DNA from: a virus
Lineage: Duplodnaviria; Caudoviricetes
Strand: one strand, 5' to 3'
Virus record (IMG/VR): IMGVR_UViG_3300016486_001578
DNA length: 64,000 nucleotides
Part shown: positions 30,370-58,703 of the stretch, one piece after another
Position numbering within the stretch: position 1 is the stretch's first letter
How the letters are laid out: every line of letters begins with the position of its first letter
The notes under the pieces: generated by a model
Database searches by the model: none
Told to the model about the DNA's origin: nothing
What the model saw: only the letters and a program-made list of their open reading frames with translations
Position numbers and translations under genes: made by a program

Positions 30370-30501
30370 ATGGACTTTAAAAAATTATTAAATAAGTGGA
30401 ATATAAATTGTGATATCAATTTAATCCTATCTATGTGGAATGAGCCAAATAGACACTATCATAATTTAACACACCTCTATGAGTGCATCATTATAAATTG
30501 A
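30370..30501 (+). pseudogene. 5' fragment of an HD-domain phosphohydrolase, broken at an inversion breakpoint
   Basis: MDFKKLLNKW...MWNEPNRHYHNLTH with its own TATATTTG box; continues in frame into 58484-57912 (-) if the intervening segment is inverted. Confidence 0.85.
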
Positions 30502-30792
30502 TTTTTCATCTTTTATAATATCATCATATAATTTTTTTGCTGATTTTAAAACCTCCTCTCCTCTTTTGTAGGGATCTGGTCCAAGATCAAATTTGAATTT
30601 TTCTTGGACTTCAGACCACTTAGTTCGTTTATTGGTGTTATTATCAATAAAGTCATACATATCGACACAATGTATGTCAACCTTGAGTCCTTTTGTGCTT
30701 GTGACGTAGTTATCTTCATCATCTAGATATGAGTATGCTCCATCATAATATCCTGGCTTAGGCTCTACCGAAATAGGTATTCCACCGTGCAT
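30466..30792 (-). pseudogene. 5' part of a hypothetical gene, broken at the inversion breakpoint
   Basis: ...KSIYNDALIE joins in frame to MLKKVELGW... at 58485 (+) after inversion. Confidence 0.7.
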
Positions 30793-30851
30793 TCTTTATT
30801 AGAATACAAATATATATATATTTATATTGAGTATTCCTAATTTTGTTCAAT

Positions 30852-31256
30852 TTATTTTAATAATTCTGAAACTAATCTATTAACAAGTCCTCTATCCGCA
30901 GGTAAATTTGCAAATTCTTTCATGAATTGACCCATATTTTTAGCACCAGATTCGTGTAATGAGTTAACTTTTTCACGAATTTCATCTTCTGTCATTTGTT
31001 TTGGTAAATAACTTTCGATTATACTAAGCTCTAAAATTGACTTTTCATCATTAGAAATGGAAATGGTTTCTTTTAGAGATTTTCCCAATTTATTTAAAAT
31101 TTTAGTAACTTCTCTATCAGATAGTCCCTCAGATCTCTTATTTTTCTCAATAGTTTGTATTTCTGCTTTAACAACAGAAAGTAAACTCTTCTTAACCATT
31201 TCTCTGCTCTTAAAAGCAACTATGAAATCTTTGTTAATTTTTTCTTTTAAAGTCAT
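30852..31256 (-). CDS. GatB/YqeY domain protein
   Basis: LKEKINKDFIVAFKSRE...IIESYLPKQMTEDEI...MGQFMK. Confidence 0.88.
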   Translation of the reverse strand: MTLKEKINKDFIVAFKSREMVKKSLLSVVKAEIQTIEKNKRSEGLSDREVTKILNKLGKSLKETISISNDEKSILELSIIESYLPKQMTEDEIREKVNSLHESGAKNMGQFMKEFANLPADRGLVNRLVSELLK

Positions 31257-31731
31257 TTTATTTTATTTTATTTGTTTATTAATTAAAAAATATAAAAGTT
31301 TGGAACTTCTAATAAGGTTGGTCGGAATCCTAGAACCTTCTAATTAATGTATAATTAGAATTTAATCCTTATTTTTTAGTGAACTAATCACTTGGAATTA
31401 CCTTTTAATGGCTTTCGCCTTCTTTAAGTAGTGTTACCATTCTACTAATCTTTAACTTTTATACGTTGGAATTATTTCTATATTATATCATTATTATACT
31501 CAAACACCAACATATCTGAGCACCACACCTTTCTATCTTATCTTTCCACGGGAAATGGCACTCCTGAATGTAGGAATCCAAAAACCCGCCAAGGTAGTTC
31601 ATTGTTTTTTATTAAAGTGTGTTAATTTATTTACCAACTACTTACTACCATTTCGTATTCTTATACAAAGATACACCAAAAGTTTCTAATAAAAAATAAA
31701 AAAGGATTTATTTTTCTTAATATATAATAAT

Positions 31732-33330
31732 ATGAAATTTTTATCAGTATATGAGGCATTTAAATCGAATACGCTATCTAAAGTACAGAAATTTATTAAA
31801 AAAAATCTAGACAAAAGAGCTGGTGATTTGTTCCTTGATCAAATAAAATCAATGGGACATAAACTAGATTTACCAATTAGTGAGATTGAAGAAAATGATA
31901 TAACTTATTTAAATTCTAGCTTAGCAAAAAAGGTAAAAATACCCGAGGGGTGGGTTGGCTCGGGTGATGATGCTATCTATGCTATTAAATTTTGGTTTTC
32001 CTTAAAGGATGGATACTTAGGAAAAACAGGAATAGGAAATAAAAAAATTAGATTCGAAAGAGGAAATCCTTCAGAAAAATTCACAGAAATAGATTTTGAT
32101 TACATAAAAAGAACATTGGGAATAAAAACTGGAAAATTAGTTCCTGTTAATAATAACACATTTCATGATTTAGAAACAGGAGACAAAATAATTGCCTTTT
32201 ATGGTGATGGAAGATCACATAGAAGATTGGGTCCTGGAGTTATATTTATTGACACAAGCAGTGGACAAAAGCATGTGTATGCAATACAGGAGTTATCAGG
32301 AGGTGGGGAGCCAAGTATATCAGGCTGGAAACAATTTGGTGAAATGAGTTGGAATATAGGAAATTACAATGGAAAAAGTTCTGACAACGCATGTCTCCAT
32401 AGGTATATAGAGAATGATGATCCGATAGAAAACTCATATAATGAAGAAAAAAATGAGAATATTCTAGATTTTAATCTACCAATCAGAAGCCATAGCCGTT
32501 GGGATAATCATCGGTGGGAATTATATAATTGGCATAATTTACACGAAGGAGGTCACAAAATAATAAAAAATTCAGATTATTGCGTAATTCTAAATTTAGA
32601 TAATATATTAGAAAGGACAGAAAAGGTATCAGAAATAGGTAAAAAAAGAAATGATTCCAGAAAAGGAGCCACATTTTTGATGAGTGATGAAGAATTGAAA
32701 AATATCAACATAGTTAAATTTTTAACAAAAATACTTAACTCAATGGGTATAAATAAAGATTTAGATAAAAGTAATAATTTAAAAAATCTTAAAAAGATAA
32801 TAAAAAGGTCTGTGTGTGTTGAATTTCCAGTAATATCAATAATAACAAGAGCAGATGATGTAATTTCTACATTTATATCAAGACTTCGTGAATTATTGAG
32901 AACAGAAACCAAAGAAATAAAGAAGCAACATTTAAATAGGATGATGTCTGATTATAGAGAACAATCAATAATAGTTACAAAAATGTCTACTCAATATAAG
33001 TTGGTATATGATGCTCTATCAAAAAATGAAAACGAAAATATAAAAACTTTTATTGGTATAATAAAGGATATAGATGAATTGATAATAAATTACTTAGAAA
33101 AATCCGATGTTAATACCATAATGGAATTTAAATCTATTCAATATAAATTCAATTATATTAAAAGTTTTTTAAATGATGGTTATTTTGATTTAAAAATAGT
33201 AAATATACTATCTAAAATAACCAGTAGCAATGGCTCAGCAGTAATAGGTTATATAAACGACCATGGAGTATCCGATGAGGAGATAGAAAAATTAGAAAAA
33301 ATAAAATTACACATAAAATCAATATTATAA
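31732..33330 (+). CDS. Hypothetical protein (tandem paralog A)
   Basis: 532 aa; shares YEAFKS, YAIKFWFSL-x-DGYLGKT, LGIKTG, KGA-x-x-x-MSD-x-E with the next ORF. Confidence 0.8.
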   Translation: MKFLSVYEAFKSNTLSKVQKFIKKNLDKRAGDLFLDQIKSMGHKLDLPISEIEENDITYLNSSLAKKVKIPEGWVGSGDDAIYAIKFWFSLKDGYLGKTGIGNKKIRFERGNPSEKFTEIDFDYIKRTLGIKTGKLVPVNNNTFHDLETGDKIIAFYGDGRSHRRLGPGVIFIDTSSGQKHVYAIQELSGGGEPSISGWKQFGEMSWNIGNYNGKSSDNACLHRYIENDDPIENSYNEEKNENILDFNLPIRSHSRWDNHRWELYNWHNLHEGGHKIIKNSDYCVILNLDNILERTEKVSEIGKKRNDSRKGATFLMSDEELKNINIVKFLTKILNSMGINKDLDKSNNLKNLKKIIKRSVCVEFPVISIITRADDVISTFISRLRELLRTETKEIKKQHLNRMMSDYREQSIIVTKMSTQYKLVYDALSKNENENIKTFIGIIKDIDELIINYLEKSDVNTIMEFKSIQYKFNYIKSFLNDGYFDLKIVNILSKITSSNGSAVIGYINDHGVSDEEIEKLEKIKLHIKSIL

Positions 33331-33334
33331 TATA

Positions 33335-34870
33335 ATGAGACACTTACTTATATACGAAGCATTTAAATCAAAGACCATATCAGCTATTACTAAATTTCTT
33401 AGTAAGAATATGAAGAAGGATGATATTGATTCTTTTTTATCAGAAATGGTAAAGATAGGTAACTCATATGATTTAACAATAAGTGAAGTTTCGGACGAAG
33501 ATATATCATATCTAAATTATAAAAAAGCAATAGAAATAAAAAAACCAGAAGATTGGAAAGGGACCGAAGGAGAAGTATATGCTATAAAATTTTGGTTCTC
33601 ATTAGAAGATGGGTATTTAGGAAAAACAGCGATTGGTAATCCAACTTCTATAAGATCATCAAGAAATCAATATGGGGAAAATGAAATTTTTACACAAGAA
33701 GAAATAGGCCACATAAAGGAAGGACTTGGTATTAAAACCGGTAGTATATCACTAGTAACTGATTATGAATCATTAAGAACTGGTGATGTTGTTTTAGTTA
33801 GCTTAACAGATAGTCACCGTGGGCAATCCATAATGGAAAACATAACAAAAGGCACTATTTTTTTATATAGTGGGGTAATTTATATAATACAAAATAGCCA
33901 TGATGGTAATAGACCAGGAGGCGATTGGCAACAATATGGATATGGACATCAAGCTTGGAAAGTCGGTAGTGATCATAGAAAATTACACTATTATAGAGAA
34001 AGTACTAGTGAATTAGGATATGATGAAGGTGATGATCCAAAAAATTGGAATTTACCAATGTCTGGTTCATCAATAAAAGGTGGATATCCGAGTGATAGTA
34101 TGTTAAATAAATCCAATTTTTGTGTTGTTTTTAATTTATATGAATTCATGAACAAGCCAAACAAAAAAAGATATGAAATAAAAAATAAAAGAAAGGAAGA
34201 GAAAAGGGGCGCTTCTATATTTATGAGTGATGATGAAATAAAAGACATAAGGGTAAATGATTACTTAACAAAGATATTAAATAATATGGGAATAACTATT
34301 GATCCCAGTGTTAGTGAAATGAAAAACCTAAATAGCGTTATAAAAAAAGCCATATGTTTTAAATATCCAACATACTCTATAATATCTGGTAGATATTCGT
34401 TTAGCTCAGTAACCTTCTTGAAAGAGTTTTCGGAATATCTATCACATTTTTTAAAAAATAAAGATGATGATAGATTTTTTAAGGATTTTATTTCTAAATA
34501 TAAAGAATTATCATTATCATCCATACAATTCTCCAAAAATATTAAAGGTCTTAATGAAAAAGTTTCAAAATTAGAAAAAGGTAGTTATGCATATAAGGCT
34601 TTCCAAATAATTGGTGAGATTGATGAAATGATAATTAAATATCTAGAAACCGAAATAAATACCATAAATGATTTTAAATCGGTGTATCATAAATTTATAT
34701 ACATAAAATCTATATTCAGTGATGAAGATATAAGGCCAGACTTTTATTATATAATTAATGACATAAGATCATCAGGATCATTTAACCCAATAGATAACCA
34801 CCCATTTAGCCAAAATGATGTAGATAAAATGGAAAAGATTAAAAAATATATAGAATCAGTTATCTATTAG
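33335..34870 (+). CDS. Hypothetical protein (tandem paralog B)
   Basis: 511 aa; same conserved blocks. Confidence 0.8.
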   Translation: MRHLLIYEAFKSKTISAITKFLSKNMKKDDIDSFLSEMVKIGNSYDLTISEVSDEDISYLNYKKAIEIKKPEDWKGTEGEVYAIKFWFSLEDGYLGKTAIGNPTSIRSSRNQYGENEIFTQEEIGHIKEGLGIKTGSISLVTDYESLRTGDVVLVSLTDSHRGQSIMENITKGTIFLYSGVIYIIQNSHDGNRPGGDWQQYGYGHQAWKVGSDHRKLHYYRESTSELGYDEGDDPKNWNLPMSGSSIKGGYPSDSMLNKSNFCVVFNLYEFMNKPNKKRYEIKNKRKEEKRGASIFMSDDEIKDIRVNDYLTKILNNMGITIDPSVSEMKNLNSVIKKAICFKYPTYSIISGRYSFSSVTFLKEFSEYLSHFLKNKDDDRFFKDFISKYKELSLSSIQFSKNIKGLNEKVSKLEKGSYAYKAFQIIGEIDEMIIKYLETEINTINDFKSVYHKFIYIKSIFSDEDIRPDFYYIINDIRSSGSFNPIDNHPFSQNDVDKMEKIKKYIESVIY

Positions 34871-35305
34871 ATAGCTCTCTATTCATTTCCCTTTTAATAT
34901 CTTTCTCTTTTATTGTATTTTTCTTATCCCAAAGTTTTTACCCTTAACTATTGCAATTTTTACTTTTATTCTATTTCTAGAAGTGAATAAACTAACAGGA
35001 ACACAAGTTATGCCCTTTGTTATAAGTGACTTATGAATCTTTGAGATTTGTTTCTTTGTAAGTAATAGTTTTTTATCTCTATTTTCTTCATGTTTTTCGC
35101 TAGCATGTGAGTGTTTATATCTAGTTATTTTCATATTCTTTATCCAAGCTGAGTTTCCATCAATGTGAACAAATGAATCTATAATAGAAACGTCTCCTTT
35201 TCTAATACTTTTAACCTCAGCACCAGTTAATACAATACCCGCATCATATTCATCTAAGATGAAATATTCATATCTAACTTTTCTATTTAATGATATATTA
35301 CCCAT
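34860..35305 (-). CDS. smpB: SsrA-binding protein SmpB (one-base frameshift near 34937)
   Basis: NRKVRYEY, AGIVLTGAEVKSIR, RDKKLLL; adding one A restores the canonical tail KGKKLWDKKNTIKEKDIKREMNR. Confidence 0.9.
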
Positions 35306-35347
35306 TCTTCAAATTTAACAATAAATTAGTAATTTACCAAAATATTA

Positions 35348-35584
35348 CTAGAATAAATTAGTAATTGATGATAATATTCTATCTTTTAAAGATTTTTTTG
35401 GAGTCTCAATATAACTTGGTGGTGTATATGATCTCTTTGTAGTGCCATCTATTATCATAATACCACTATCATTGATATATGATAATTCATACCCAAAGTG
35501 TTTTATTATTTCAGTAACTTTCCTTTTGGTTATTAACTTATTTTTCCATAAGTACCAAACATTTTGTAGTATTGCGCTTGCCAT
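35348..35584 (-). CDS. Hypothetical protein
   Basis: 78-aa ORF in the trx-smpB gene run. Confidence 0.55.
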   Translation of the reverse strand: MASAILQNVWYLWKNKLITKRKVTEIIKHFGYELSYINDSGIMIIDGTTKRSYTPPSYIETPKKSLKDRILSSITNLF

Positions 35585-35587
35585 TTT

Positions 35588-35908
35588 TTATAAATTTTTA
35601 TCGATTAATTCTGCTATTTTTTGCTTAGTTGTTGATCCTACTATTCTATCAATTAACTCACCATCTTTATAAATTAATAAAGTTGGTATACTTCTAATTC
35701 CTAAGTCTGTTGTTGTTCCTCCATTATTATCTGCGTTTAATTTACCCACAGAAACTTGTCCTTTATATTCTACTGACAATTCATCAACAAAGGGACCAAT
35801 TACTTTACAAGGCCCACACCAAGGTGCGAATATATCAATCAAAACTACACCTTCTTTGGTGAATTCGGTAAAATTATCATCAGTTAATTCTGTTATATAT
35901 GCTATCAT
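35588..35908 (-). CDS. trxA: Thioredoxin
   Basis: WCGPC, IRSIPTL. Confidence 0.95.
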   Translation of the reverse strand: MIAYITELTDDNFTEFTKEGVVLIDIFAPWCGPCKVIGPFVDELSVEYKGQVSVGKLNADNNGGTTTDLGIRSIPTLLIYKDGELIDRIVGSTTKQKIAELIDKNL

Positions 35909-35950
35909 ATTGTATATTTTCTTTTTTATATTAATTTTTGAATAAGAAGT

Positions 35951-37828: not shown

Positions 37829-37872
37829 TTATTGCCTTTAATTTTTATTTATTGCCTTTAATTTTTATTTAT
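37828..37872. repeat. 20-bp tandem duplication directly upstream of the sigma start codon
   Basis: TTTATTGCCTTTAATTTTTA x2 plus a partial third copy. Confidence 0.85.
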
Positions 37873-38408: not shown

Positions 38409-38413
38409 GTTTT

Positions 38414-41272: not shown

Positions 41273-44200
41273 ATGCCTATAAATAGTTCATTTCCAAAAG
41301 TTGCGGATCAAGTTATATCATTTAATAAAAATTTAGTAGATATTTTATCTAAATTGAATAATCTAACAACAACGACTGATTCGACAGTTAATGTACAAAT
41401 ATACGATGAAGAAGGCATATTAAGAAATTTTTCACTACCTTCTTTCTCTTCATTAAAGTCAGAAATAGATAGACTCAATAATAATATTAACTCTTTATAC
41501 TCAATAGATGCAACAGGATCGCTAATACAAACATCAAGTACTAATAAATTTAAGAAGATAATAACAGTTGATTTAAACAGAGATCCTAATCCAGTATCGA
41601 CACTCGGTAATATAGATTCATTTAAATCAAAGACAAATTGGTTCTTTGATTCAATGATAGATCCTATGTTACAAGTTGATATAGACTTATCCGGTAAGAT
41701 AGAAAACAATGTTAGTAAATGTTTAGTTAGGAGGTATATAGTTAATTTTGAACAAGATGAGAATGGATTAACAAATAATGGACAATCTGCTATAAACGCC
41801 TTTAATGGGTTATTTAGAGGAAACTCAAATATAGTGTTTTCTGAATTTGAAGAGTGGCACAAAAAAACACCTGGTGTTCTAAACCCACAAAATCCAAGGT
41901 ACGATGAAGATAATTATAACTTAGAACCAAATAGCACATTATATGATGGTGAATTTAGTGTTTTGAGAATACAAGAAGATAGACTAAACAGAAAATTGTG
42001 GTATGTTTTAAATACTCTCGATTATGTTATATCAGGAACATCAGAATCAAAACAACTATCAATTGGTGATGAGGTTATAGTAAATAGCCCAAAAACATCA
42101 ACAAGATATAAGATAATTGAAATATCAACAGTAGAATCTAGCCCAAGAGTTAGGGTAGAGATAATAGAAGGAATAGAGCCTATATCAGTTGGAATAGGAA
42201 CACTTAAAATATACTCACCTATTGTTTATAGTAAGAATATAAGAATAAACATTGGTTATTCTGAAAGGAATATAATTTTCCTAAAACCAATAAACACAGA
42301 AAATAATTTAGTTGCAAAAAAATGGAGCTTAGGATCTGGTTTCTACACAAATGACCTTAGATTAGAATCATCAACAGAAGATAATGGATTAACAATGGAA
42401 CAATTTTATACAGAATATGTATATGATTATGGTTCTGTGTTGAAAGATTTGGTTTCCAAAAATATACCATCTAGGTTATCAGGTGTACCTGATGCGCCAT
42501 CATTAGATATCAGTAATTTTAAAGTTGTGCAAATAAATAAACATTTAACAGACACACCAAATAGCGCCTTGATAAAACAAAAACACAATTATCAAAATAG
42601 TCTAAAGTCAGAAATAAATCAAATACAAGAATCTATATTAGATAGAAACAAAAAACTTAAAGTAACCAGATTCAAATCAGAGTCTTCAAAGAAACAATCT
42701 TTTCTGGAAGTTAAAGAATTGACCTCAAAGAAAGAAAGTAGAAACAAGTTATTAAGTACGGTAACAAGAGAAATAATTGATATCTCTAAAAATCCGATAA
42801 CAAAAGCCGAACCTAAATATAGACTTAGGGGATTTTGGGAATTCCCAGAAGCGGTAGTATCGAAAGGAACTCTACCACAAGAGATAATACAATTTAGAGT
42901 AGAATATAGATATGTTGGAGTAGATGGGACAGAAACATCAATTGATCAATATAAAGTTAATGATTCCGAAAAAGCTAGTTTTTCTAACTGGAAATCATAT
43001 AAGTCTGATATAAGAAAAAGAATATATGATTCAGAGTCTGATGAGTATTATTGGGAAATAGAAGACTTAGAAGATCCTGATATACCCAATATAAATCAAT
43101 TGGATTTAGGAATACAAGCAGGAGAGAGAATTGAATTTAGAGTAAAGTCTATATCCGAAGTTGGGTGGCCAGATTCGCCAATAGAATCAGATTGGTCTAG
43201 TATAATGTCAATTGATTTTCCGGACGATTTGAATAATATCTTAAATGAAAATGAGTTCATATTACAAGAAGCCAATAAAGAAGATATTAGATTAACATTA
43301 AATAATGAATTAGATTCCAAGGGACTCGATGAGCACCTTTCTGATACCATAGTTGATAATGGAAAAGTTATACATCATGATGCCTCTAAGATATTATCCG
43401 GCTTTAAAGATGAAAATGGATCCTCATTGGATTTGTTTGAATATTTAAAAAAATTAGAATCTAAAATAAAAACATTAGAGGAGAAAATAAGTAGATCTAG
43501 AGGAATACTAGAAATAACAATGCTTAGAAATAATGAAGAATTTAAAATAAGCAATGGGTCAGAAACATCATTCAAAATAGAATGTGAGGATTATTTAGAT
43601 GATGCAACAGGTTCTAATATACCAACTGGTAGAGTATATGAAAATAACGTATATGTAATAAGAGATTTTGTGCTTAGGGTTAGAAACTCAGCAACAGAAT
43701 CCCCACTTGGTTTATTATCTGATAAGAATTATCTACAAAATTCAAACATATTTAACGATGATGCACCACAGACTTTCTGGGTAAATGAACAAGACGAATT
43801 ACTTAGATCAGACTTAACATCACAAACAAGAACACAATTAAATAATCAATTTATTTGGATGGTAAATTATGATGGAGTTTCCGACACTAGTATAAAGAGC
43901 CTTTCAAGAGACATAGGAAATTCATTTGTATCTAAAAACGAAATAACAAATGTATTATCATCATCTGAATATAATGTAGGATATGGTGAGAATTCAATAT
44001 TATCATTTGTTGGAAATAACAATTCATTAACCGATTTAGATAAATGGGTAGAAGATTCAGCAACAGATACTTTTAAATTATTAACATCAGTACATCCAGT
44101 TGTAAAAGATTTGGAATCTATTGTAGAAAACAACTCAAGTAGAGTAAAAAGTATAGAGTCAGGAGATAATAATGATATAATTATACCGATAAATATATAT

Positions 44201-44416
44201 TTCAAAATGAATTCACTTGATCCAAATCAAGCTGGTGGTGGTTATGAGTATATAAATATGAATAGATTCAAGAATACAAAAAATCATATAAAGAAATTGA
44301 AATTTTTATTAGAAGATGAAGCGGAGAATAGACCATTCACATTTTCTTTAAAATTCACAATAAATAGTGGTAAAAATAATAATGCTAGAACAAGAATTGG
44401 CAAAGTATTTAATTAA
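41273..44416 (+). CDS. Large putative virion structural protein
   Basis: 1047 aa; coiled coils and FN3-like RVKSISEVGWP...SDWS; late motif upstream. Confidence 0.6.
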   Translation: MPINSSFPKVADQVISFNKNLVDILSKLNNLTTTTDSTVNVQIYDEEGILRNFSLPSFSSLKSEIDRLNNNINSLYSIDATGSLIQTSSTNKFKKIITVDLNRDPNPVSTLGNIDSFKSKTNWFFDSMIDPMLQVDIDLSGKIENNVSKCLVRRYIVNFEQDENGLTNNGQSAINAFNGLFRGNSNIVFSEFEEWHKKTPGVLNPQNPRYDEDNYNLEPNSTLYDGEFSVLRIQEDRLNRKLWYVLNTLDYVISGTSESKQLSIGDEVIVNSPKTSTRYKIIEISTVESSPRVRVEIIEGIEPISVGIGTLKIYSPIVYSKNIRINIGYSERNIIFLKPINTENNLVAKKWSLGSGFYTNDLRLESSTEDNGLTMEQFYTEYVYDYGSVLKDLVSKNIPSRLSGVPDAPSLDISNFKVVQINKHLTDTPNSALIKQKHNYQNSLKSEINQIQESILDRNKKLKVTRFKSESSKKQSFLEVKELTSKKESRNKLLSTVTREIIDISKNPITKAEPKYRLRGFWEFPEAVVSKGTLPQEIIQFRVEYRYVGVDGTETSIDQYKVNDSEKASFSNWKSYKSDIRKRIYDSESDEYYWEIEDLEDPDIPNINQLDLGIQAGERIEFRVKSISEVGWPDSPIESDWSSIMSIDFPDDLNNILNENEFILQEANKEDIRLTLNNELDSKGLDEHLSDTIVDNGKVIHHDASKILSGFKDENGSSLDLFEYLKKLESKIKTLEEKISRSRGILEITMLRNNEEFKISNGSETSFKIECEDYLDDATGSNIPTGRVYENNVYVIRDFVLRVRNSATESPLGLLSDKNYLQNSNIFNDDAPQTFWVNEQDELLRSDLTSQTRTQLNNQFIWMVNYDGVSDTSIKSLSRDIGNSFVSKNEITNVLSSSEYNVGYGENSILSFVGNNNSLTDLDKWVEDSATDTFKLLTSVHPVVKDLESIVENNSSRVKSIESGDNNDIIIPINIYFKMNSLDPNQAGGGYEYINMNRFKNTKNHIKKLKFLLEDEAENRPFTFSLKFTINSGKNNNARTRIGKVFN

Positions 44417-44443: not shown

Positions 44444-47400
44444 ATGAAAAGTTTTTCTATATTAAGAACCAATGTTGGTTTAACCACAAATGTAAAAATA
44501 ATGATAGAATCGGATTATAATCTAAGCCTGGATAGCATAGATTCTAATTATATATTATCATCTGATAGATTTAAGAAATTTAAATTTAACAAAAGTCAGT
44601 ATTATGATGAAATTTTACCAAAATTCTATAAAGATTTACCAACAGAAAATTCATATCAAATAAAATATAGTAATGATGTTGATAGCATGAGTGATGATTT
44701 TGCTTACCAGTATGACGAGATATATAATTACGGAGCTAGAAATATAATAAACAATAAGAATTATAAAGAGGAGTATGAATATTTCGCACCTCTTTATATA
44801 AACCCAAATTCATTACCATCAAATTTTGTAATTTTTAGAGTGGATGATCCCGGAATAGAGACATTAACTAAGGAGAATTTTAAATCATCTATATTAAATA
44901 GGTTCAAAACCGTTAAGTTATTTGATATGGGAATAGAAAATAATATAGGTGAGTGGTTAGATATTAATTTTGTATCTAATGACTATTTTCCACCAACTCC
45001 ATTAGAAATTGATTTTAGGACAATAGAATTTAGTAAGTGGAATGGAATAGACTATGAAAATGGTGGATATGTTTCAAAATCTTCATTTATGGAAGAAATA
45101 TTTGAGAATGAAAGAGAAATATTCGAGCTAGAAAAATTAATATTCAATAATTATAGAAACAATAAAGTTATATTCCCTAACATATTGAACTTTTCATTTC
45201 TTTTTGATGATAGCCCATCCACCCCAGACATAAAAAGGAAATGGTCGCTGAATAGGTATTTTGGCTTCTATCTAGACTCTATGGATTTATCAACAACGAT
45301 ATCACCATATAAAACAATTGAGTTGAGAGAGGATGTGGTAATAGAAAGTGGTAATATATTATCATCACCATCAAGTATAAACCCATTCAAAGAAGAGTGG
45401 ACAGAAGATAAACCATTTTATGTTGAGTATTTAGGTGATTATTTCTTAGTAAGCAGATATTCAGAAAATCGTGGAGAAGGAATAGGGCAATCACAAGGAG
45501 ATGGATATATTTTAGAAGAATATAAAAATATAACATTTTTTAATTATAAGATAATATCCGAAATAGACCTAGAAGGAAAGCAATCATATTTGAATTTAAA
45601 TTATGGATTTATAGATGATAATAATATTCTAAAATCGAGTAATGATGCTTATTTTGATATAAGTGATTTTGATAGCGCAGATGTTTGGTTAATAAAAATA
45701 GATGAAATATACCACAATATAATAAAAGTAGATGATGGTTATTTAAAAATTAATTCTGATTACTCATTTGAATTTAAATTAAACCACTTTGAGTATAAAG
45801 TCGCTTCAGTGATAACAAAGGTAAGTTTCTTGGTTGATTATGATAATCCCCCAAAAAGGTTTGAAATATTTAAATTGAAATTTACAGAAATAAAAGATTT
45901 TGATAATAATATAATAGATACAAAGTACTCTAGATATGAATATGAGAAATCAGATGAGACAACAGATACAGATGAACCAAAGATTTATATGGAAAACACA
46001 TTGAGTGAATCTAGTCCAAAAGAATTAGATGAATTTATATATAATGATGAGTTAATAAATATACCCGTATCATCTGAGTATACCGCTAATTATGAAACAT
46101 TTAAAATAGATAATGGAGACTTGTCTGATATTTGGAGGATAAATCCAGTATATTGTAGGTGGGGGTATCAAAAATCGATATCATTTCAAGATCACCCATA
46201 TTTATTAAACAACTCTTTACTTTTTGAAAAATACAACAAGTCATCAAACACAAGTATAGAATCCGTTAATAGGAGTGAGCGAAACTTAGATTATTTTTAT
46301 ACAATAAACTCAGATTCTAGCTCTTATATAAACCACTCACTGCATATTGAGAAGATAAACTCAAATAGCGATTCGATAGATTCATCGTTGAAATTTGATT
46401 TGAACAAATATTTCAATGCTACTTATTCAAATGATTATTTTTCTTATTTTTTCGAAGATGGTGCTTACTTTGATAATTTAAATATAAAGAGAAATGTTAA
46501 AAAATACTCATACTTTAATAAAGGAGATTCTTCTATACCTAATATATCATCATTTAAAGGATTGGAATTTAAAGTTTATAATGTTAATAGCATCTCAATG
46601 GATTCAGATAATATAGATAAAATAAATGTAAATGTTAAAAACGAATTTGATGATTATAAATTTTCTATATTACTAACCGAGGATGATAGTGAAATGGTAT
46701 GGAATATATCAAAAGATTATGAAATAGGAAAAGAATATAATATTGGTGATTTAGTATCACTAGATGATATTCTATACATAGCTGATTCTGATAACACACC
46801 TAACTCACCAACAACGACAGTGGGTAGTTGGGGAAATTTAAGATCAACTCCATATAACAACCCAGCATGGAGTGTTTATTCTGGAGGAAGTTATTCTATA
46901 TTATGGAATCCAGAAACAACAACTTATATAGACAATCTAAGTAATATGGGTCCAAGTTTAGTTTACAATAGTAAAAATTATTATTATTGCTATGATGAGA
47001 ACTCTGTCAGAGATTTTTGGAACCCAATAAAATCAACCACCGCTCCCTATATAATAGATGATATTGTTTTATATAATAATCAGTATTATATCTCTATGAT
47101 AGATGATAATTTTTATTGCCCAAATAAAAATAATTATGATAAATTCAAACCAATAGATTCATTATACAAATATTGGAAACCAATCGAAGAACCAACTACC
47201 ACAAAGTGGAAGAAAATAGAAATTTGGAATCCAAGTAATCAATATATTGGTGGATTATCAAGTAATGATAAATCAATAGTTGTTCATAACGATATAGTTT
47301 ATACATCAAGTGATTCTATTGATTATATATCAATAGAAGAGGAACCGGGTGTTTCTAATGTCTGGACAAGGTTATATAGCCTTTATCCGGATACTGATAT

Positions 47401-48397
47401 AGTTTATGGCCCTGAAAACCCATTACTTTTTATGAACAATAGATATTATTTATTAGAAAGTAATGCTGGTGATGAAACACTAGAAAATGGTATAACCATT
47501 TATATAAACAAAAAATGGAAAAATATACTAGTAAACATCTATATAAATGATAATACACTACCAGATATATCCGGAAAAAATAGAGATGATATATATACGG
47601 ATTTACATAGTAATTTAACAGCTTTTAATTTCATAACATCCATAAATGATTTATCTAATAAGTATGGATTTTCGGATTATATAAAATATACAATAATAGA
47701 TGAAGATTATAACAGACAAACATATAGTTATGATGATGGACTAGGGAACTTACCCTATATAATATCCTGTGAACCAGCAGGTGGTCTATTGGTAAAAAAA
47801 GACTCACTAATAATTAAGCCAATGGATGATAGAGTGTCAGTTAAGGTAAAATTATCAAATAATAAAATAGATGATATATCAAAAATAGATTGGTACAATG
47901 GATCACCAATTTCATATAATATAATAGAGAATATAGAAAGGCCTAAAATTTTTAAAAATTATAGCTCCAATAAAAATATAGAATATATACAAATACAAAG
48001 ACTTGGTGGTTATTATATGCCAATATTTGAAGAGGTGCCTATATTTAATAAAAATTCATATGAAAAAGATTCAGGTAATTATCTATTTGATACAGAATTG
48101 AGTGACTTTGGAATAATAAAGGAAAGAAAGATAAGAAAGGTAAATAGAAGTGGTTCTATACTAAAAAATAGAGACTCAAAAAATGATAAATCTATATATC
48201 CAATGGTTGGTGAATTTGGATACTCATATACTGATTTTATGATATTTAAATCAACATGGGATAAAGAATACCACATAGAAGATGTTCTAATTAAGAATAA
48301 GAGAATAAGAGAAGACATAAACAAAATACAAATACCAAAAACAATAGGACAACCAGCTCAAATTAAGGTTGATAATAATAAAAAATATATATTATAA
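44444..48397 (+). CDS. Large putative virion protein with short carbohydrate-binding-like repeats
   Basis: 1317 aa; repeated W-x-P-x-x-x-Y...D-x-V-x-Y motifs; late motif upstream. Confidence 0.55.
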   Translation: MKSFSILRTNVGLTTNVKIMIESDYNLSLDSIDSNYILSSDRFKKFKFNKSQYYDEILPKFYKDLPTENSYQIKYSNDVDSMSDDFAYQYDEIYNYGARNIINNKNYKEEYEYFAPLYINPNSLPSNFVIFRVDDPGIETLTKENFKSSILNRFKTVKLFDMGIENNIGEWLDINFVSNDYFPPTPLEIDFRTIEFSKWNGIDYENGGYVSKSSFMEEIFENEREIFELEKLIFNNYRNNKVIFPNILNFSFLFDDSPSTPDIKRKWSLNRYFGFYLDSMDLSTTISPYKTIELREDVVIESGNILSSPSSINPFKEEWTEDKPFYVEYLGDYFLVSRYSENRGEGIGQSQGDGYILEEYKNITFFNYKIISEIDLEGKQSYLNLNYGFIDDNNILKSSNDAYFDISDFDSADVWLIKIDEIYHNIIKVDDGYLKINSDYSFEFKLNHFEYKVASVITKVSFLVDYDNPPKRFEIFKLKFTEIKDFDNNIIDTKYSRYEYEKSDETTDTDEPKIYMENTLSESSPKELDEFIYNDELINIPVSSEYTANYETFKIDNGDLSDIWRINPVYCRWGYQKSISFQDHPYLLNNSLLFEKYNKSSNTSIESVNRSERNLDYFYTINSDSSSYINHSLHIEKINSNSDSIDSSLKFDLNKYFNATYSNDYFSYFFEDGAYFDNLNIKRNVKKYSYFNKGDSSIPNISSFKGLEFKVYNVNSISMDSDNIDKINVNVKNEFDDYKFSILLTEDDSEMVWNISKDYEIGKEYNIGDLVSLDDILYIADSDNTPNSPTTTVGSWGNLRSTPYNNPAWSVYSGGSYSILWNPETTTYIDNLSNMGPSLVYNSKNYYYCYDENSVRDFWNPIKSTTAPYIIDDIVLYNNQYYISMIDDNFYCPNKNNYDKFKPIDSLYKYWKPIEEPTTTKWKKIEIWNPSNQYIGGLSSNDKSIVVHNDIVYTSSDSIDYISIEEEPGVSNVWTRLYSLYPDTDIVYGPENPLLFMNNRYYLLESNAGDETLENGITIYINKKWKNILVNIYINDNTLPDISGKNRDDIYTDLHSNLTAFNFITSINDLSNKYGFSDYIKYTIIDEDYNRQTYSYDDGLGNLPYIISCEPAGGLLVKKDSLIIKPMDDRVSVKVKLSNNKIDDISKIDWYNGSPISYNIIENIERPKIFKNYSSNKNIEYIQIQRLGGYYMPIFEEVPIFNKNSYEKDSGNYLFDTELSDFGIIKERKIRKVNRSGSILKNRDSKNDKSIYPMVGEFGYSYTDFMIFKSTWDKEYHIEDVLIKNKRIREDINKIQIPKTIGQPAQIKVDNNKKYIL

Positions 48398-50652: not shown

Positions 50653-50672
50653 ATGCTCTTAAATAAAAATAT

Positions 50673-51683: not shown

Positions 51684-51693
51684 TGGTTATATA

Positions 51694-52458: not shown

Positions 52459-53179
52459 TTAATTTTAATATATCTTTTAATTTCATATCCAACAATGGCT
52501 CAAAATCTTCTTTTTTAGTCCTTAGTTTATCACCATGCATTCTAATACCCCAATCTAAAATGGAGATGGCGTGTCTGTGTCTATCTAATATCGATTTAGA
52601 TAAAACTACCATTAGTTCTCTTTCTTTATTTTCTACTAGATCTATTTTTCTTATTTTCGAAGTTTTTATAAACTCTGGATCTTTATTCTCTAAAATACCA
52701 GCTAGTTGAATTTCTCTTGACTCTTCTTGATTTAACTTACGAAATCTCCAACCACCATAATATCTATATTTTCTAGGTATACCAACAAATCTTATATAAT
52801 TTTCCCTACGGACATAACCACTAGATGATGTTGTTTCTTTTAACATTACCTCCTCGATAACATATCTACCGTTTTTTGCTAATGTTTTAAATGTGTCTGC
52901 TTGACAAACAATAATATCTCCTTCTTTTACTGAAACATATTCAGTACCATACCTTCGACCAGGTGGTTGAGTATTACCAAGAATATTAGTTTTTGGTAAT
53001 TCCTTACCAAAATAGTCAACAAAATTTATGGCCTTAAAACTACCATAAGACTCACTAATCTCTAAAGTTCCCTCTACTATTTTATTATTAGTGCCATCAT
53101 TTCTTAGTTTTGTCAAATTATAAGCGACACCATTTAATAATTTTTTACTATTATTTTTTCTGTAAAATACTTTCATCAA
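52445..53179 (-). CDS. Hypothetical protein
   Basis: 244-aa ORF. Confidence 0.7.
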   Translation of the reverse strand: MMKVFYRKNNSKKLLNGVAYNLTKLRNDGTNNKIVEGTLEISESYGSFKAINFVDYFGKELPKTNILGNTQPPGRRYGTEYVSVKEGDIIVCQADTFKTLAKNGRYVIEEVMLKETTSSSGYVRRENYIRFVGIPRKYRYYGGWRFRKLNQEESREIQLAGILENKDPEFIKTSKIRKIDLVENKERELMVVLSKSILDRHRHAISILDWGIRMHGDKLRTKKEDFEPLLDMKLKDILKLIDIV

Positions 53180-53606
53180 AATTTTTTATTAATTCAATTA
53201 ATTCTTCTTTATCTAATTTATTTAATATGTCCTCTAAAACAACCTTTAATTTAAAGTTTATTATTTTATTTGACATATAATCTACATATTCTTCTGTTTC
53301 GCCTAATCCTAATCTAAGTAAATTAACATCACGGGTATTTAAATCCAATATACAAACATTTCCCTCATATGCTTCTTTTCCAAATTCATTAATTAGGTAT
53401 GATACCCCATCCATTTCTATTTTTAAATTACCACTATCTCCAATAAATGACAAAACATCAATATCCATTGGTGTTCCAATGGTAACTGATAGGTGGTCTA
53501 TTATATCCTTGGCGGCTTTCAAACCCAAACCAGTAGCTATCTTTATTGCTTTTACTGCTAATAATTTACTTGATAATTTTTTTCTAAGAAATATTCTAGC
53601 TTTCAT
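53151..53606 (-). CDS. Protein with ribosomal bL12 C-terminal-like domain
   Basis: KLLAVKAIKIATGLGLKAAKDIID matches the bL12 CTD motif. Confidence 0.75.
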   Translation of the reverse strand: MKARIFLRKKLSSKLLAVKAIKIATGLGLKAAKDIIDHLSVTIGTPMDIDVLSFIGDSGNLKIEMDGVSYLINEFGKEAYEGNVCILDLNTRDVNLLRLGLGETEEYVDYMSNKIINFKLKVVLEDILNKLDKEELIELIKNFDESILQKK

Positions 53607-53609
53607 TTT

Positions 53610-54218
53610 TTATATTAAAATTTCATTAATTATACCAACTTGTCTAATTAGACCATGGTCTTTGTAATTGTGTATCACATTATCAGCAAGTGAATTTTTA
53701 TCAAGTTCACTCATTTCTTTTCCTAATATATGATTTGCGGTTGTTCTATTAAAATTCTCATTTTTAGATTTTTTAGATCTTTCTACCCTGTCTATAAATG
53801 GCGCATAAACGCTTATGTTTCTGTCCATTCTTTTGTGCCAACCGGCCTCAAATAAAATACTAGAATTAAAAATAGTGTACCTAGCGCCTTTTTGTTTTTT
53901 TATAAATCTATTATATGCTTTGAATAAATCTTTTTCAACTATTTTAAGCAAATCTAAGAATTTTTTATCCTCATTTACTTTATTTAGCTTTATCATAGAA
54001 TAATCATCAGATATATAATCTACTCCAATTCTTTCTAAAATAGTAGAATTCATCGATAAGTCAGATAAAGCCGCATGATTTAAAATAAACTTTAATACAA
54101 TATCAGCATCAAAAATAGGAATATCAAAGCTATCAAAGAATACTTTAGCAACTTTATTTTTTCCTGAAAACCTATTTCCCGATAAACCAACTCTAATCAT
54201 AATATATAATTTATACAC
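53610..54218 (-). CDS. coaE: Dephospho-CoA kinase-like protein
   Basis: VGLSGNRFSGK, FDAD, ILFEAGW, ADNVIHN. Confidence 0.8.
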   Translation of the reverse strand: MYKLYIMIRVGLSGNRFSGKNKVAKVFFDSFDIPIFDADIVLKFILNHAALSDLSMNSTILERIGVDYISDDYSMIKLNKVNEDKKFLDLLKIVEKDLFKAYNRFIKKQKGARYTIFNSSILFEAGWHKRMDRNISVYAPFIDRVERSKKSKNENFNRTTANHILGKEMSELDKNSLADNVIHNYKDHGLIRQVGIINEILI

Positions 54219-54243
54219 AAATATAAGAAAAAAGAATTAAATA

Positions 54244-55218
54244 ATGGAATTAACTAAGAAAGAACTTGGATTTATATTATACAATAATAGATCAACTGAT
54301 GTTGTGAAGAATTTTTTACCAATTGATATAAACCCAATAAGGTTAATTAATATAGAGAATAAATTTGAAAAATCAAAATTAAAATATAGAAATATTAATA
54401 AAAATGTAGAAGTTAACTTAAAGGAAATAAACTTAGAAGCCGGAGATATAATAGTAGATAGAGATTTACTATTAAGCACCAATAATACCTTTGTAGATAA
54501 TATAGGAAAGTTCAGTGACCGGGAATTATCATTTATGAAAAATAGAAAGATACCAGATTCGGTAATAAAAAAATGGAAATTATTGGGTCTTTCTAATTTT
54601 AGCTCCGAAGAACTTGATATAATAGGAGCAACAGTTCATCCAACAATGTCAAGAGTGTTATCTAGCGAAATAGATGGGGGTGGTATAGTTTTCCCACTTT
54701 ATGATAATGGTGAATTGAAAAATTGTGCTATTAGGAGAATATCCATTGAAAATAACGAAAAGTCTTCTTTAAAGTACTCATTGGCTTGTCCTGATGTATC
54801 CATATGGAAATCAAAAGATATACAACCAGGTGATGAGATATGGTTAACTGAGGGCCTTTTTGATATGTTTGCACTAGATGAGTTGGGATATAAATCAGTT
54901 TCTTGTTCGAGTGCTATGTGGAGCGGAATACAACTATATGAGTTGGTTCTATTAAGACCGTCAGTTATTAACATATTCTCAGATAATGATGAAGTTGGAC
55001 TTAGAGTATCAGCCATATTATTTGATTTTTTTACCAATTATGGGGTAAATTCTAATATTTACAAAAGTAATAATTATAAAGATGCTTCTGAACATTTTTT
55101 TGAAAATGAACAAAAAATAGAATCATTAGAAGTTATAAAGGACATAGAAAAATTATTATTAAATACAAATGATGAATCTTTTGACTTTATAAATTACATT
55201 AAAAATAGAAAATTTTAA
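54244..55218 (+). CDS. Toprim-domain (primase-like) protein
   Basis: IVFPLY, LTEGLFD, FSDNDEVG, KDASE. Confidence 0.75.
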   Translation: MELTKKELGFILYNNRSTDVVKNFLPIDINPIRLINIENKFEKSKLKYRNINKNVEVNLKEINLEAGDIIVDRDLLLSTNNTFVDNIGKFSDRELSFMKNRKIPDSVIKKWKLLGLSNFSSEELDIIGATVHPTMSRVLSSEIDGGGIVFPLYDNGELKNCAIRRISIENNEKSSLKYSLACPDVSIWKSKDIQPGDEIWLTEGLFDMFALDELGYKSVSCSSAMWSGIQLYELVLLRPSVINIFSDNDEVGLRVSAILFDFFTNYGVNSNIYKSNNYKDASEHFFENEQKIESLEVIKDIEKLLLNTNDESFDFINYIKNRKF

Positions 55219-55250
55219 TTTTAATATATATAAAAAATACAGGCAATTAG

Positions 55251-56078
55251 ATGATAAAAAAATATACACAATTTATAAAGGAGGGGTTTAGCCCAATTAT
55301 GATACCAACATTGGAGGAAGAAATAGATGAATATGGTTCAGATAATGGAGTTAGCTTTTCGACTTTATACCGAAGAGATGTAGATAGCTATCTAGATGAT
55401 ATGCATAAATACCTCGAAGATAAAGGTTGGTCATTAGAATCTATTAGAAAAAATCACACCAATGATGAATTGGTAGGAATGTATGATAGAATAGATTATA
55501 AAAATGGACTGATTGATGTATATTTTTATGATTTATTTAAAAAATTAGAAATAAAAAAAGAGGTATTTCTAGGAGGAGAAGGTTGGTGTGATTATCATGT
55601 AAATGAGGATGAAGCTTTCATAAGATATCAATATGGAATGCACGAAACAAAATATGGGAAAATATGTATCGAACAAGGAGGCGATTTGGAAGATTTTGTA
55701 ACAACATCAAGGGGTTATTTCAGAGAACACATAGACTCCGACTTAATGGGTAATATAACAACAATATATTATAACCAAGCGAATAGTACTTGGTTTAGAA
55801 AGCTAATAAAAGATGATGAGAAAATAAAGAAAATGAGTGAATTCTCTGTAGTAGAAGAAGATAGATATATAATATTCACAAGTGAGATAGCTAAATATTT
55901 AAATAACTTGGAGCTAGAAAATGGTGGGTTATTATCTAGTATATTAGAGGTAAATGAGGAAATGATATCATCAAAAATATCAAATTTCTTAGAGGGGTTA
56001 AAATTAGAGGTAGGTTTCACAGGAAACGAATATATAATTTATAGCAATGATATGTTTGGTGATGACTTCTTAAAATAA
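55251..56078 (+). CDS. Acidic hypothetical protein, MIKKYTQFIKE N-terminal motif
   Basis: ORF with late motif upstream. Confidence 0.7.
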   Translation: MIKKYTQFIKEGFSPIMIPTLEEEIDEYGSDNGVSFSTLYRRDVDSYLDDMHKYLEDKGWSLESIRKNHTNDELVGMYDRIDYKNGLIDVYFYDLFKKLEIKKEVFLGGEGWCDYHVNEDEAFIRYQYGMHETKYGKICIEQGGDLEDFVTTSRGYFREHIDSDLMGNITTIYYNQANSTWFRKLIKDDEKIKKMSEFSVVEEDRYIIFTSEIAKYLNNLELENGGLLSSILEVNEEMISSKISNFLEGLKLEVGFTGNEYIIYSNDMFGDDFLK

Positions 56079-56086
56079 TAAAAAAT

Positions 56087-57193
56087 ATGATAATAAATTT
56101 AGAATCAAAAACAGGACTTGCTGGTTTTTATGTGGTCTACGAAGGATCCACCAACTTAGAAAAGCCAGGATGGTATGGAATATCACACCTAATGGAGCAC
56201 CTTATGTGTAAAAATTTTGATCACCTACAAGAAGACTTCGATAAAGATGGAATAGACTGGAATGCTTATACCTCATCAAATGAGATAGTTTTCTATATAA
56301 CTGGATTAGAAGAAAAGGTAGAAAAATGGAAATATGAATTTATTAAATTATTGAGTGGGTTTGATGTAACCAAAGAAGAATTCGAAAATGAAAGAAAAAT
56401 TGTTTTAGAAGAATACATGGACGCCTTTAATGACCAAACACCAACACACGAAATGAATTTATTAAGAAGTAAATTTAATGATTTTAGTCCAATTGGGTCA
56501 AAAAAAGACTTAAAAAATTTAAAATTTATGGATTGTTTGAACTTTTTTGAACTTCAATATAGCCAACCAACTAAAATTATAAATGTTTCTAACAAAAAAT
56601 ATAAAAACAATATAATAAACTTCAACACAAATGAAGTTACTAAAAAGATTGAATTTGGAGAATATGATAATGAGCTAGAGCTTGGTAATAAATTTGATGA
56701 CAAATCATCACTTATTATGATATCACCTGTGATTGATGAAGATTTTGGTTATATTCATTTTATAAATTCAATGTTAGCACTTGGGCTAAAATCACCATTA
56801 TATCAAGAAGTAAGAGAAAAGCGTGGATTAGTTTATTACATACATTGTTATTTATCTAGAATGAATAAAGAGGGTATAATACAATTAGCTACACAAACAT
56901 CTAATAAAAATATTGACGAGGTCATAAGTTCAATTGAGTTAGTTCTAAGAAACCCGGATAAATATTTAACAAAAAGTAGATTCGATATAGTAAAGGAATA
57001 CTATAGTGTTAGATTAAAAAAGAGTGATATATTAAGACACAATAGTGTGGGGAGATGGATAAATCCGGATGGGTTCTCTGTTTATGATATATTAGAAGAT
57101 GTTACCATGGAAAAGATAAGAGAAGTATATGACAAATACTATAACTTTGATAGCTTCTATTTATCCAATGATAAAACAGAGTTTACAAAATGA
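56087..57193 (+). CDS. M16 (insulinase) family peptidase
   Basis: GISHLMEHL, NAYTS, ERKIVLEE, LYQEVREKRGLVY. Confidence 0.92.
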   Translation: MIINLESKTGLAGFYVVYEGSTNLEKPGWYGISHLMEHLMCKNFDHLQEDFDKDGIDWNAYTSSNEIVFYITGLEEKVEKWKYEFIKLLSGFDVTKEEFENERKIVLEEYMDAFNDQTPTHEMNLLRSKFNDFSPIGSKKDLKNLKFMDCLNFFELQYSQPTKIINVSNKKYKNNIINFNTNEVTKKIEFGEYDNELELGNKFDDKSSLIMISPVIDEDFGYIHFINSMLALGLKSPLYQEVREKRGLVYYIHCYLSRMNKEGIIQLATQTSNKNIDEVISSIELVLRNPDKYLTKSRFDIVKEYYSVRLKKSDILRHNSVGRWINPDGFSVYDILEDVTMEKIREVYDKYYNFDSFYLSNDKTEFTK

Positions 57194-57915
57194 TATTACC
57201 TTATTTAGGTGAGAAGTCCAAATTTTCAAATTTTATAATACCACACATACCAAGTGATATGAAGACTTATGTAGAACCATTTGGTGGACTTATGGGTATT
57301 TTCTTATCAATGGACTTAGATGATTTTTCATTTGATAAATTTATTTATAATGATATTAATTTTTTAAACTACAATTTATTCAATCACTTAAAAAAACAAG
57401 AATTCATAAAAAGGTTATCAAAAATAGATTTAGATGAGGAAATATATCGAGTGTGTGTTGATAGTATATTGGATAATAAAATGACTAATTTAGAAATGGC
57501 AATAAATTGGGTAATTGTGTTAAGTTGCTCAGATCCAACAAGAGTAGGAGAATACTCTTGGAGAGGCCCAAGTGAATTTCAGATATTTAGATTAAAGTAT
57601 TTAGATTATAAGCCAAATTTAGATTCCTTATCAGAAGTAAAAAATTTAGATTATAAAGATATAATAGAATTATATGATTCAAAAGAAACTTTCTTTTATC
57701 TAGACCCACCATATAAAGGAAAAGAAGACTATTATATAAATCATGATTTCAAAGGAAATAAGCACAAAGAATTATCAGGTATATTAGAAAATATAGATGG
57801 TAAATTTCTATTGAGTTATTATAACTTTGAGGGAATAAAAGAAATGTATAGTAATTGTAGGTTTGAATCTAAATCAACAATAATGGGAACTGAGTTATTA
57901 ATAATGAATTATTAA
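57190..57915 (+). CDS. Dam-like DNA adenine methyltransferase
   Basis: YVEPFGG, YNDIN, YLDPPY. Confidence 0.85.
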   Translation: MILPYLGEKSKFSNFIIPHIPSDMKTYVEPFGGLMGIFLSMDLDDFSFDKFIYNDINFLNYNLFNHLKKQEFIKRLSKIDLDEEIYRVCVDSILDNKMTNLEMAINWVIVLSCSDPTRVGEYSWRGPSEFQIFRLKYLDYKPNLDSLSEVKNLDYKDIIELYDSKETFFYLDPPYKGKEDYYINHDFKGNKHKELSGILENIDGKFLLSYYNFEGIKEMYSNCRFESKSTIMGTELLIMNY

Positions 57916-58484
57916 TCTTTCTTATTCTTAAGGTCTTTCTGCATTGACCTAGCACGATCGATTTGTTCTTTTGATAAGTTTTTCATCCTTTCTAATCGAC
58001 CTTCCATTAAAGCAGGATCTGTTTCGGAATTATAATTTTCTTTGGCACACTCTATCAATTTTGATAAATTTTCAAAATTTTCAGGATATATATCCAAAAG
58101 CGATTCTAAAAATTTAAGCCTATGTTCTTTGTAAATTTCGTTACCAAATATTTGGAACTCTCCATAAATTCCATTTTCCCACTCCAATAAAGCACTAAAA
58201 TCTCTTTCCACGATATTCATATCATAATTAATGAAGTCATTTGATAGGCTATTATTGGATTTATGTGATTTTGTATCTAATATCATTTTATACACATCAA
58301 TTATATTAACATCATCTTTATTTAGGCAACAATTTAAGAAAAATTCTGCTGATTTTTCTTCATTATCCCGATTAGTAACATCATATATACAATCATGAAA
58401 CAAGGCTGTTAGTATTAATTTTTCATAATCTATTTGTGAATAGTCATTCTTATTACTATCAATTTGTTTTATAACATCATCTAT
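57912..58484 (-). pseudogene. 3' part of the HD-domain phosphohydrolase (no own start)
   Basis: IDDVIKQI...LILTALFHDCIYD...NEEKSA; no ATG between the upstream TAG and the HD motif. Confidence 0.85.
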
Positions 58485-58703
58485 ATGCTTAAAAAAGTAG
58501 AACTAGGTTGGCGATGGTTTCAGAATATGGAAGTAGACAAAAAAACCGAAGGATTTAATGAACATAAATTTTACTCTTGGAAAGTAATCAACAAAGATGG
58601 TAAAAATATGGGAAGTAGCATACATAACACTGAATCAATACAAGATTCTGGATTATGGGAAAAAAATCAGATGAAATGCCTGGATATTACGAATGGAAAA
58701 TAA
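58485..58703 (+). pseudogene. 3' part of the hypothetical gene begun at 30792 (-)
   Basis: MLKKVELGWRWFQN...; in-frame junction after inversion; probable homopolymer frameshift near 58663. Confidence 0.65.

Follow-up and report, generated by a model that had tools for sequence, protein, structure and literature searches.

The stretch of DNA analysed here, called the window throughout, comprises 64,000 nucleotides of the virus record IMGVR_UViG_3300016486_001578 (IMG/VR), with a GC content of approximately 28%. Two of its genes are split. One encodes an HD phosphohydrolase, and the other, referred to as gene 2, encodes a protein of a family described below. The halves of each gene lie at opposite ends of a 28-kb block, and turning this block around restores both. 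At the left end, the N-terminal HD fragment (30370–30501, plus strand) contains 35 authentic codons (30370–30474, MDFKK...RHYHNLTH), possibly also the leucine codon at 30475–30477, before eight out-of-context codons lead to a stop. Overlapping it on the opposite strand is the N-terminal fragment of gene 2 (30466–30792, minus strand), in which 106 authentic codons (30792–30475, ...KSIYNDALIE) are followed by valine, cysteine and a stop, all read from the far side of the junction. The right end holds the remaining pieces: the C-terminal HD fragment (57912–58484, minus strand), a start-less run of 190 codons (IDDVIKQI...LFHDCIYD), and the C-terminal fragment of gene 2 (58485–58703, plus strand), with 72 codons (MLKKVELGW...), the first of which, an ATG, falls exactly at the junction. 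An earlier examination of the letters alone, here termed the sequence-only reading, had placed all four fragments at these positions, where each was confirmed.

The inverted block extends from 30475 to 58484 (28,010 bp) or, for a crossover in the short ATGA/TCAT match, from 30483 to 58476. Re-inversion in silico with either candidate breakpoint yields an HD protein of 225 residues and a second protein of 178 residues. Both products of a flip foreseen by the sequence-only reading, an HD protein of about 225 residues and the joining of ...KSIYNDALIE to MLKKVELGW..., are thereby reproduced. The left breakpoint zone (30472–30482) reads CA (30472–30473), CCTCT and ATGA (30479–30482). The right zone (58477–58487), which reads TCAT (58477–58480), CTATA and TG (58486–58487), is its reverse-complement counterpart. 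Sequence common to both ends amounts to only 2–4 bp, CA/TG or ATGA/TCAT, spaced as CA-N5-ATGA; the microhomology pointed out previously, CA or an ATGA a few nucleotides inward, is present as claimed. The block ends have neither an extended inverted repeat nor any repeat of more than 4 bp. With the breakpoints in register the two sites agree at 23 of 61 positions, and other offsets give 11–23, so this similarity is at background level. The sites had also been called loosely palindromic. That description is true of the letters (palindrome scores of 7/11 and 8/11) but carries no significance, as about 31% of randomly chosen positions in the AT-rich window reach 8/11 or more. The crossover would have taken place in CA or, most likely, in the 4-bp ATGA/TCAT. 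The latter is favoured because it gives H-L-Y-D-V in the HD protein, rather than the H-I-D-D-V expected from CA, and L36 is invariant in 112 of 112 HD homologues.

Homologues of the two split genes

Related phage contigs encode more than 100 intact HD homologues of 185–186 residues, to which the rejoined protein is approximately 60% identical. Their JGI name is predicted metal-dependent HD superfamily phosphohydrolase. The N-terminal fragment matches residues 1–35 of these proteins, and the two pieces (35 and 190 codons) abut without gap or overlap when compared with 11 intact homologues and again with 112. The rejoined 225-residue protein displays an H...H...HD...D pattern, provided by HYHNLTH and LFHDCIYD, and both motifs are conserved in the 112 homologues. 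Against the Pfam profile PF01966 the C-terminal fragment scores 15.9 bits, with the Pfam cut-off at 22 bits. A profile of the HD family found no sequence match among solved structures. Measured against the HD superfamily as defined by PF01966, the window gene has the motif pattern but is split, and it carries a 39-residue tail that its homologues lack. The cut falls between the predicted first histidine cluster (HYHNLTH) and the HD motif. Since the larger, C-terminal part is left with neither a start nor a promoter side, the HD enzyme is almost certainly dead and its gene a fresh pseudogene.

The 39-residue C-terminal tail of the HD protein (NSETDPALMEGRLERMKNLSKEQ...) is encoded at 57912–58031 on the minus strand. 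It is missing from all 112 intact homologues, which end in ENY in every sequence shown, with one ending in EIYK. The end of the tail overlaps the 3' end of a convergent gene for a Dam-like methyltransferase. One or two extra ORFs (open reading frames) occupy the corresponding position in LR745206 and LR756502, the related phage genomes described in the next section. A deletion may have fused sequences to create the tail. A further variant lies close to the right junction. An A-to-C single-nucleotide polymorphism (SNP) at 58505, present in contigs of JGI 3300028228 and 3300028222, is synonymous in the C-terminal fragment of gene 2. On the opposite strand it removes a stop, producing a chimeric ORF of 237 residues (P0252) in which antisense sequence is fused to the C-terminal HD fragment.

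Homologues of gene 2 were collected by an exhaustive phmmer search over 1.8 billion representatives. The search returned 125 of them (P0126–P0249; representatives at 50% clustering), which form two classes by length, one of about 125 and the other of about 200 residues. The N-terminal fragment aligns to residues 23 to approximately 137 of the ~200-residue homologues, and the C-terminal fragment matches this same class in its C-terminal domain, through a conserved LGWxWFQ...SGLWEK. When joined, the 178-residue protein gives single BLASTP high-scoring segment pairs across the junction with 41 homologues of about 200 residues. The best of these junction-spanning matches is P0126 (E = 7e-45); another is P0130 (E = 9e-45 over query residues 1–166). 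The junction is in frame, with the spacing of homologue P0128. Both joined proteins therefore align full-length to homologues, 112 for the HD halves and 41 for gene 2, and the inversion proposed by the sequence-only reading stands. An AlphaFold 2 model of P0130 (predicted local distance difference test score 94.6) has two domains linked by a long helix (102–143). On this model the break in gene 2 lies at about residue 137 (P0130 numbering), near the end of the predicted helix between the domains.

Judged by its sequence matches, the gene-2 family is widespread. It matches no Pfam or PHROG profile. Foldseek comparison of the P0130 model with the PDB gave no match at E <= 0.001, and VIA-align of the family model returned generic long-helix matches only (Z <= 5.7), with no convincing PDB fold match. 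In tblastn searches of the phage collection the two fragments had no match, and a word-indexed protein search returned nothing beyond the 108-residue ORF of the window itself. The genomic context of the homologues is not conserved. Two of them, on contigs that were inspected, adjoin translation genes such as those for ribosomal S21 and a tRNA synthetase. The N-terminal fragment retains its own start and upstream region and for this reason may still be made; it may also still be functional. It stops two codons past the junction, near the point where the natural short members of the family end. The C-terminal fragment lies back to back with the C-terminal HD fragment and so has no promoter region of its own.

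Gene order in related phages

At the nucleotide level, the phage collection contains only two relatives of the window, the genomes of the uncultured phages LR745206 (634,780 bp) and LR756502 (642,428 bp). Even these nearest relatives share only about 60% protein identity with it. Contigs that carry the window sequence reach 548,945 and 560,843 bp. The window phage is an uncultured huge phage of approximately 550–560 kb, of Bacteroidota type, related to LR745206 and LR756502.

Synteny was established by comparing each ORF of the window, in tblastn searches, with 50 kb of LR745206 and 40 kb of LR756502. The flanks at 22150–30284 (genes for proteins of 1016 and 1683 residues) and 58693–60758 (from a 137-residue gene onward) lie on the same strand as in the relatives. 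All 20-odd genes between 30852 and 58403 appear in reversed order and on the reversed strand at 308.7–336.5 kb of LR745206, with no exception, and LR756502 agrees. In both relatives an intact HD gene of 186 residues follows the left flank, at the place that corresponds to the left breakpoint. Past it come one or two small ORFs, after which the coding strand changes for the methyltransferase and the M16 peptidase. This succession is exactly what the un-flipped window predicts, and the window is accordingly the inverted form. Comparison of synteny, which had been suggested as a check, thus resolves into one clean inversion relative to both genomes. Taken with the homologue alignments of the two genes, the agreement goes far beyond chance. 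Because the relatives have an intact HD gene, the window lineage represents the derived state. The order that these alignments show as the ancestral one is the 1683-residue gene, the HD gene and the Dam methyltransferase, through to YqeY, gene 2 and the 137-residue gene.

At the far end of the region, LR745206 carries the YqeY homologue, then 3.3 kb of other genes, and then a homologue of 58693–59106 on the same strand. Gene 2 is absent from this locus in LR745206 and LR756502. The 3.3 kb found at the locus of gene 2 in LR745206 (~336.6–339.8 kb; L003 36581–39755) are a different insert. By eye, this insert holds an ORF of 454 residues resembling class II aminoacyl-tRNA synthetases (Asp/Asn-type), accompanied by ORFs of 73, 219 and 183 residues, the last with an HD motif, also recognized by eye. 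The gene-2 locus is a variable accessory-gene spot.

Origin of the inverted arrangement

The junctions recur in other assemblies. The exact broken ORF of 108 residues is present on 12 contigs, ten of which were examined. They derive from NCBI (GCA_900162855.1), five JGI metagenomes, three ENA assemblies of MEGAHIT style (k141_) and Logan. A 331-mer spanning the left junction is matched at 100% identity by nine of these ten contigs and at 99.7% by the tenth, and an exact 60-mer is present in all of them. The right junction occurs on seven contigs; the five examined are identical except for one SNP 20 nucleotides away. In total, the junctions are found in about ten sample or assembly accessions from four sources, and two SNP variants both have the inversion. 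No publication came up in a literature search for these accessions. The JGI contig Ga0302071_100040 (34,645 bp) carries both junctions. Several junction contigs are indel-noisy and evidently stem from a different sequencing chemistry. Among the contigs compared, none ends at a junction. Contigs from different samples do end repeatedly at 29177, 30077–30080, 31549 and 34168, and two of these recurrent ends lie in the N-terminal part of the 1683-residue gene; they may mark strain-variable or low-coverage spots.

That the inversion exists in the assembled contig only, and is absent from the phage DNA, is extremely improbable. Errors of this kind are on record, as one published 630-kb 'genome' was an artefact according to the main text of Al-Shayeb et al. 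2020 (PMC7162821), and the junction contigs represent one strain, some of them possibly assembled from overlapping read sets. Yet the same junctions emerge from different assemblers and archives and from contigs of evidently other chemistry. One contig spans both ends, no repeat above 4 bp is available for a mis-join in the assembly graph, and a mis-join would not result in two exactly reciprocal junctions. Mis-assembly, one of three options left by the sequence-only reading, is effectively excluded. Somewhat more room is left for a fixed inversion that arose by homologous or fork-associated recombination, either between short inverted repeats since decayed or by exchange between the forks of an origin at about 44.5 kb, although this too is very unlikely. 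Bacterial genomes commonly show inversions that are symmetric about the origin, and the midpoint of the block (~44,480) falls in the short gap between two giant ORFs (41273–44416 and 44444–48397). A GC skew of the kind produced by bidirectional replication is present in approximately 30% of the genomes of huge phages, as given in the main text of the 2020 study (PMC7162821). The junctions of the window are, however, coding sequence that aligns residue for residue with homologues, so that nothing has decayed there and there was never a repeat. GC skew in the window changes sign at about 3, 22, 31, 35, 42, 51 and 54 kb and tracks the coding strand, with no origin signal at 44.5 kb, and the point of divergent transcription lies at 41.25 kb rather than at the midpoint. 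Skew had been put forward as a check on the inversion itself; as its sign changes merely follow the coding strand, inside the block and outside it, it says nothing on this question.

The third option was a switch. In a programmed, reversible inversion, an unrecognised site-specific recombinase would flip the 28 kb and thereby make or break the HD gene and gene 2, and the less frequent orientation would be hidden from assemblies. Reciprocity of the exchange is exact and the reading frame is kept at either junction, the spaced motif CA-N5-ATGA is common to the two sites, and the four fragments are undamaged, as they would be if a population flipping back maintained them. Such a switch is nonetheless very unlikely. 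The sites form no inverted repeats, and their similarity and palindromes are at background. Pfam searches of essentially all window ORFs of at least 90 residues gave no serine or tyrosine recombinase, which upholds the earlier statement that no recombinase gene is visible in the window, and the two complete relatives LR745206 and LR756502 have no match to Resolvase or Phage_integrase. The other orientation was not encountered either. A set of 5.8 billion protein clusters that contains this phage has neither a joined gene 2 nor an intact HD protein exceeding 62% identity, and no contig or protein of the ancestral orientation was found in the databases, against 10 and 5 contigs of the present one (left and right junctions). 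Assembled contigs and proteins show the inverted arrangement alone in every sample with the phage. Scans of two contig collections for the ancestral-junction pattern were empty, but their left-flank positive control was empty too; the collections therefore lack this phage, and the scans carry no weight. A search for related loci among viral contigs, started from either fragment, likewise yielded nothing usable. With an intact HD gene and no gene 2 at the locus, the relatives offer no conserved switch architecture. The invertible segments known from phages span only a few kb and show obvious repeats. The G segment of Mu (Gin), the C segment of P1 (Cin) and the Hin segment of Salmonella span about 1–4 kb between inverted sites of about 26–34 bp, occur in both orientations and sit beside a serine invertase gene. 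The window block is like them in having two possible orientations and reading frames that change at its ends. In contrast, it is 28 kb long, has no inverted sites and no matched serine invertase, and is seen in one orientation only. With no sites, no recombinase match in the window ORFs or the relatives and no second orientation seen, the proposed recombinase-driven switch finds no support. A very large programmed invertible segment, in which a recombinase of unrecognised kind toggles the HD gene and gene 2 through minimal CA-N5-ATGA sites without repeats, is highly improbable. If it were true, the undamaged fragments would reflect ongoing selection rather than recency.

The arrangement is, very probably, a real, fixed, recent and one-off inversion of 28 kb that arose by conservative illegitimate recombination and inactivated the HD gene. 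A recent natural inversion was among the options of the sequence-only reading, and it is supported by synteny, by the homologues of both genes and by fragments free of stops and frameshifts. One reciprocal exchange connected a site within HD codons 35–38 with a site at approximately codon 106 of the 178-residue gene 2 and turned around all that lies between them. At the HD junction no codon was lost or gained, and the junction in gene 2 is in frame. The exchange is considered illegitimate, or non-homologous, because the sites share only CA-N5-ATGA. Its joint was probably short and either staggered or microhomologous, and the 4-bp ATGA/TCAT is the most likely place for it. Subunit exchange by type II topoisomerases and microhomology-mediated end joining are textbook mechanisms of illegitimate recombination. 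Subunit exchange, or the rejoining of two breaks guided by microhomology, is a candidate route here. Events of either type (in the former case by gyrase or T4 topoisomerase) would likewise be conservative and reciprocal, with about 4 bp shared and no loss of sequence; for the topoisomerase route the likeness is a mechanistic analogy and not demonstrated membership. Both complete relatives encode a GyrA/ParC-type protein, which is the sole result in favour of this route.

Several points weigh against this interpretation. The junction contigs belong to one strain (99.9% identity or more once indel noise is set aside), and related samples may have been assembled again under some of the accessions, so that independent observations would be fewer than contigs. 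Orientation is known from assemblies, and a minority of the population may have the other one. Of the phage's own genome, the recombinase search covers the window. Loss-free reciprocity at both junctions is less usual for random double-strand-break repair and leaves room for an enzyme-mediated exchange, and the topoisomerase mechanism itself is inferred.

The age of the event can be bounded from the state of the fragments. Their 403 codons contain no stop or frameshift. The target for substitutions that create a stop corresponds to 76 site-equivalents, which limits neutral divergence to d < ~0.04 per site at 95%, provided that the fragments are neutral. As the relatives are only about 60% identical at the protein level, the event is recent on that scale, with no closer dating. 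A test for decay at family-conserved columns scored 18 of 103 as 'lost' and was discarded as uninformative, since the homologues cluster in a single narrow clade, with the window as an outlier. The phage evidently tolerates the loss of both genes.

Gene content and comparison with other huge phages

The inverted block carries genes for YqeY, SmpB, thioredoxin, a sigma factor, NAD-ligase, S1, a formyltransferase, M28 and M16 peptidases, CoaE, a Toprim protein and the Dam-like methyltransferase, together with the two giant ORFs. The gene content of the phage includes NAD-ligase, a sigma factor, SmpB, ribosomal S21, S1, an L7/L12-like protein, YqeY, a formyltransferase, PhoH, M16 and M28 peptidases, the Dam-like methyltransferase and tRNA arrays. 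It is typical of huge phages such as Lak and Mahaphage. In the main text of Al-Shayeb et al. 2020 (PMC7162821), complete phage genomes of 634 and 642 kb are described, the largest genomes are grouped with the Lak megaphages in a Mahaphage clade, and Bacteroidetes is given as the predicted replication host for phage genomes of such size. Lak lineages differ by six large rearrangements, according to the main text of Devoto et al. 2019 (PMC6784885). The Lak and Mahaphage genomes are, like the window phage, huge and AT-rich, with many translation genes, tRNA arrays and large rearrangements between lineages. The event in the window differs in being resolved to the base: two genes are broken, the exchange is reciprocal with 2–4 bp of microhomology, and it is recent. 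Breakpoint anatomy of this kind is not part of the main text of either paper.

Large rearrangements between megaphage genomes are thus already published, and the window inversion adds one with base-level resolution. It provides a clean example of huge-phage rearrangement, in which a single conservative, non-homologous exchange turned 28 kb around and cost the phage a gene that is otherwise conserved in hundreds of contigs from related phages. Studies of how megaphages lose genes or undergo illegitimate recombination can draw on its nucleotide-level breakpoints. For annotation the inversion carries a warning, because four apparent genes (43, 108, 163 and 72 residues) are the halves of two. It raises no new biological question unless both orientations coexist in reads.

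Some features of the surrounding DNA remain to be described. The protein of 1683 residues encoded to the left of the block (25233–30284, minus strand) begins with an XRE-type helix-turn-helix (HTH) domain (HTH_3/HTH_19). The approximately 1600 residues that follow contain repetitive motifs rich in N, G, W and F and match no further domain. The protein is partly conserved in LR745206 and LR756502. Inside the block, two adjacent plus-strand ORFs of 532 residues (31732–33330) and 511 residues (33335–34870) both match a single region of LR745206 (L003 33768–35429). No Pfam domain was found in either. Judged by these matches, the pair has the look of a tandem duplication confined to the lineage of the window. 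Adjoining the right side of the inversion, at 60300–63200, are eight tRNA genes detected by ARAGORN (Lys, Trp, His, Phe, Trp, Lys, Ser and Ser).

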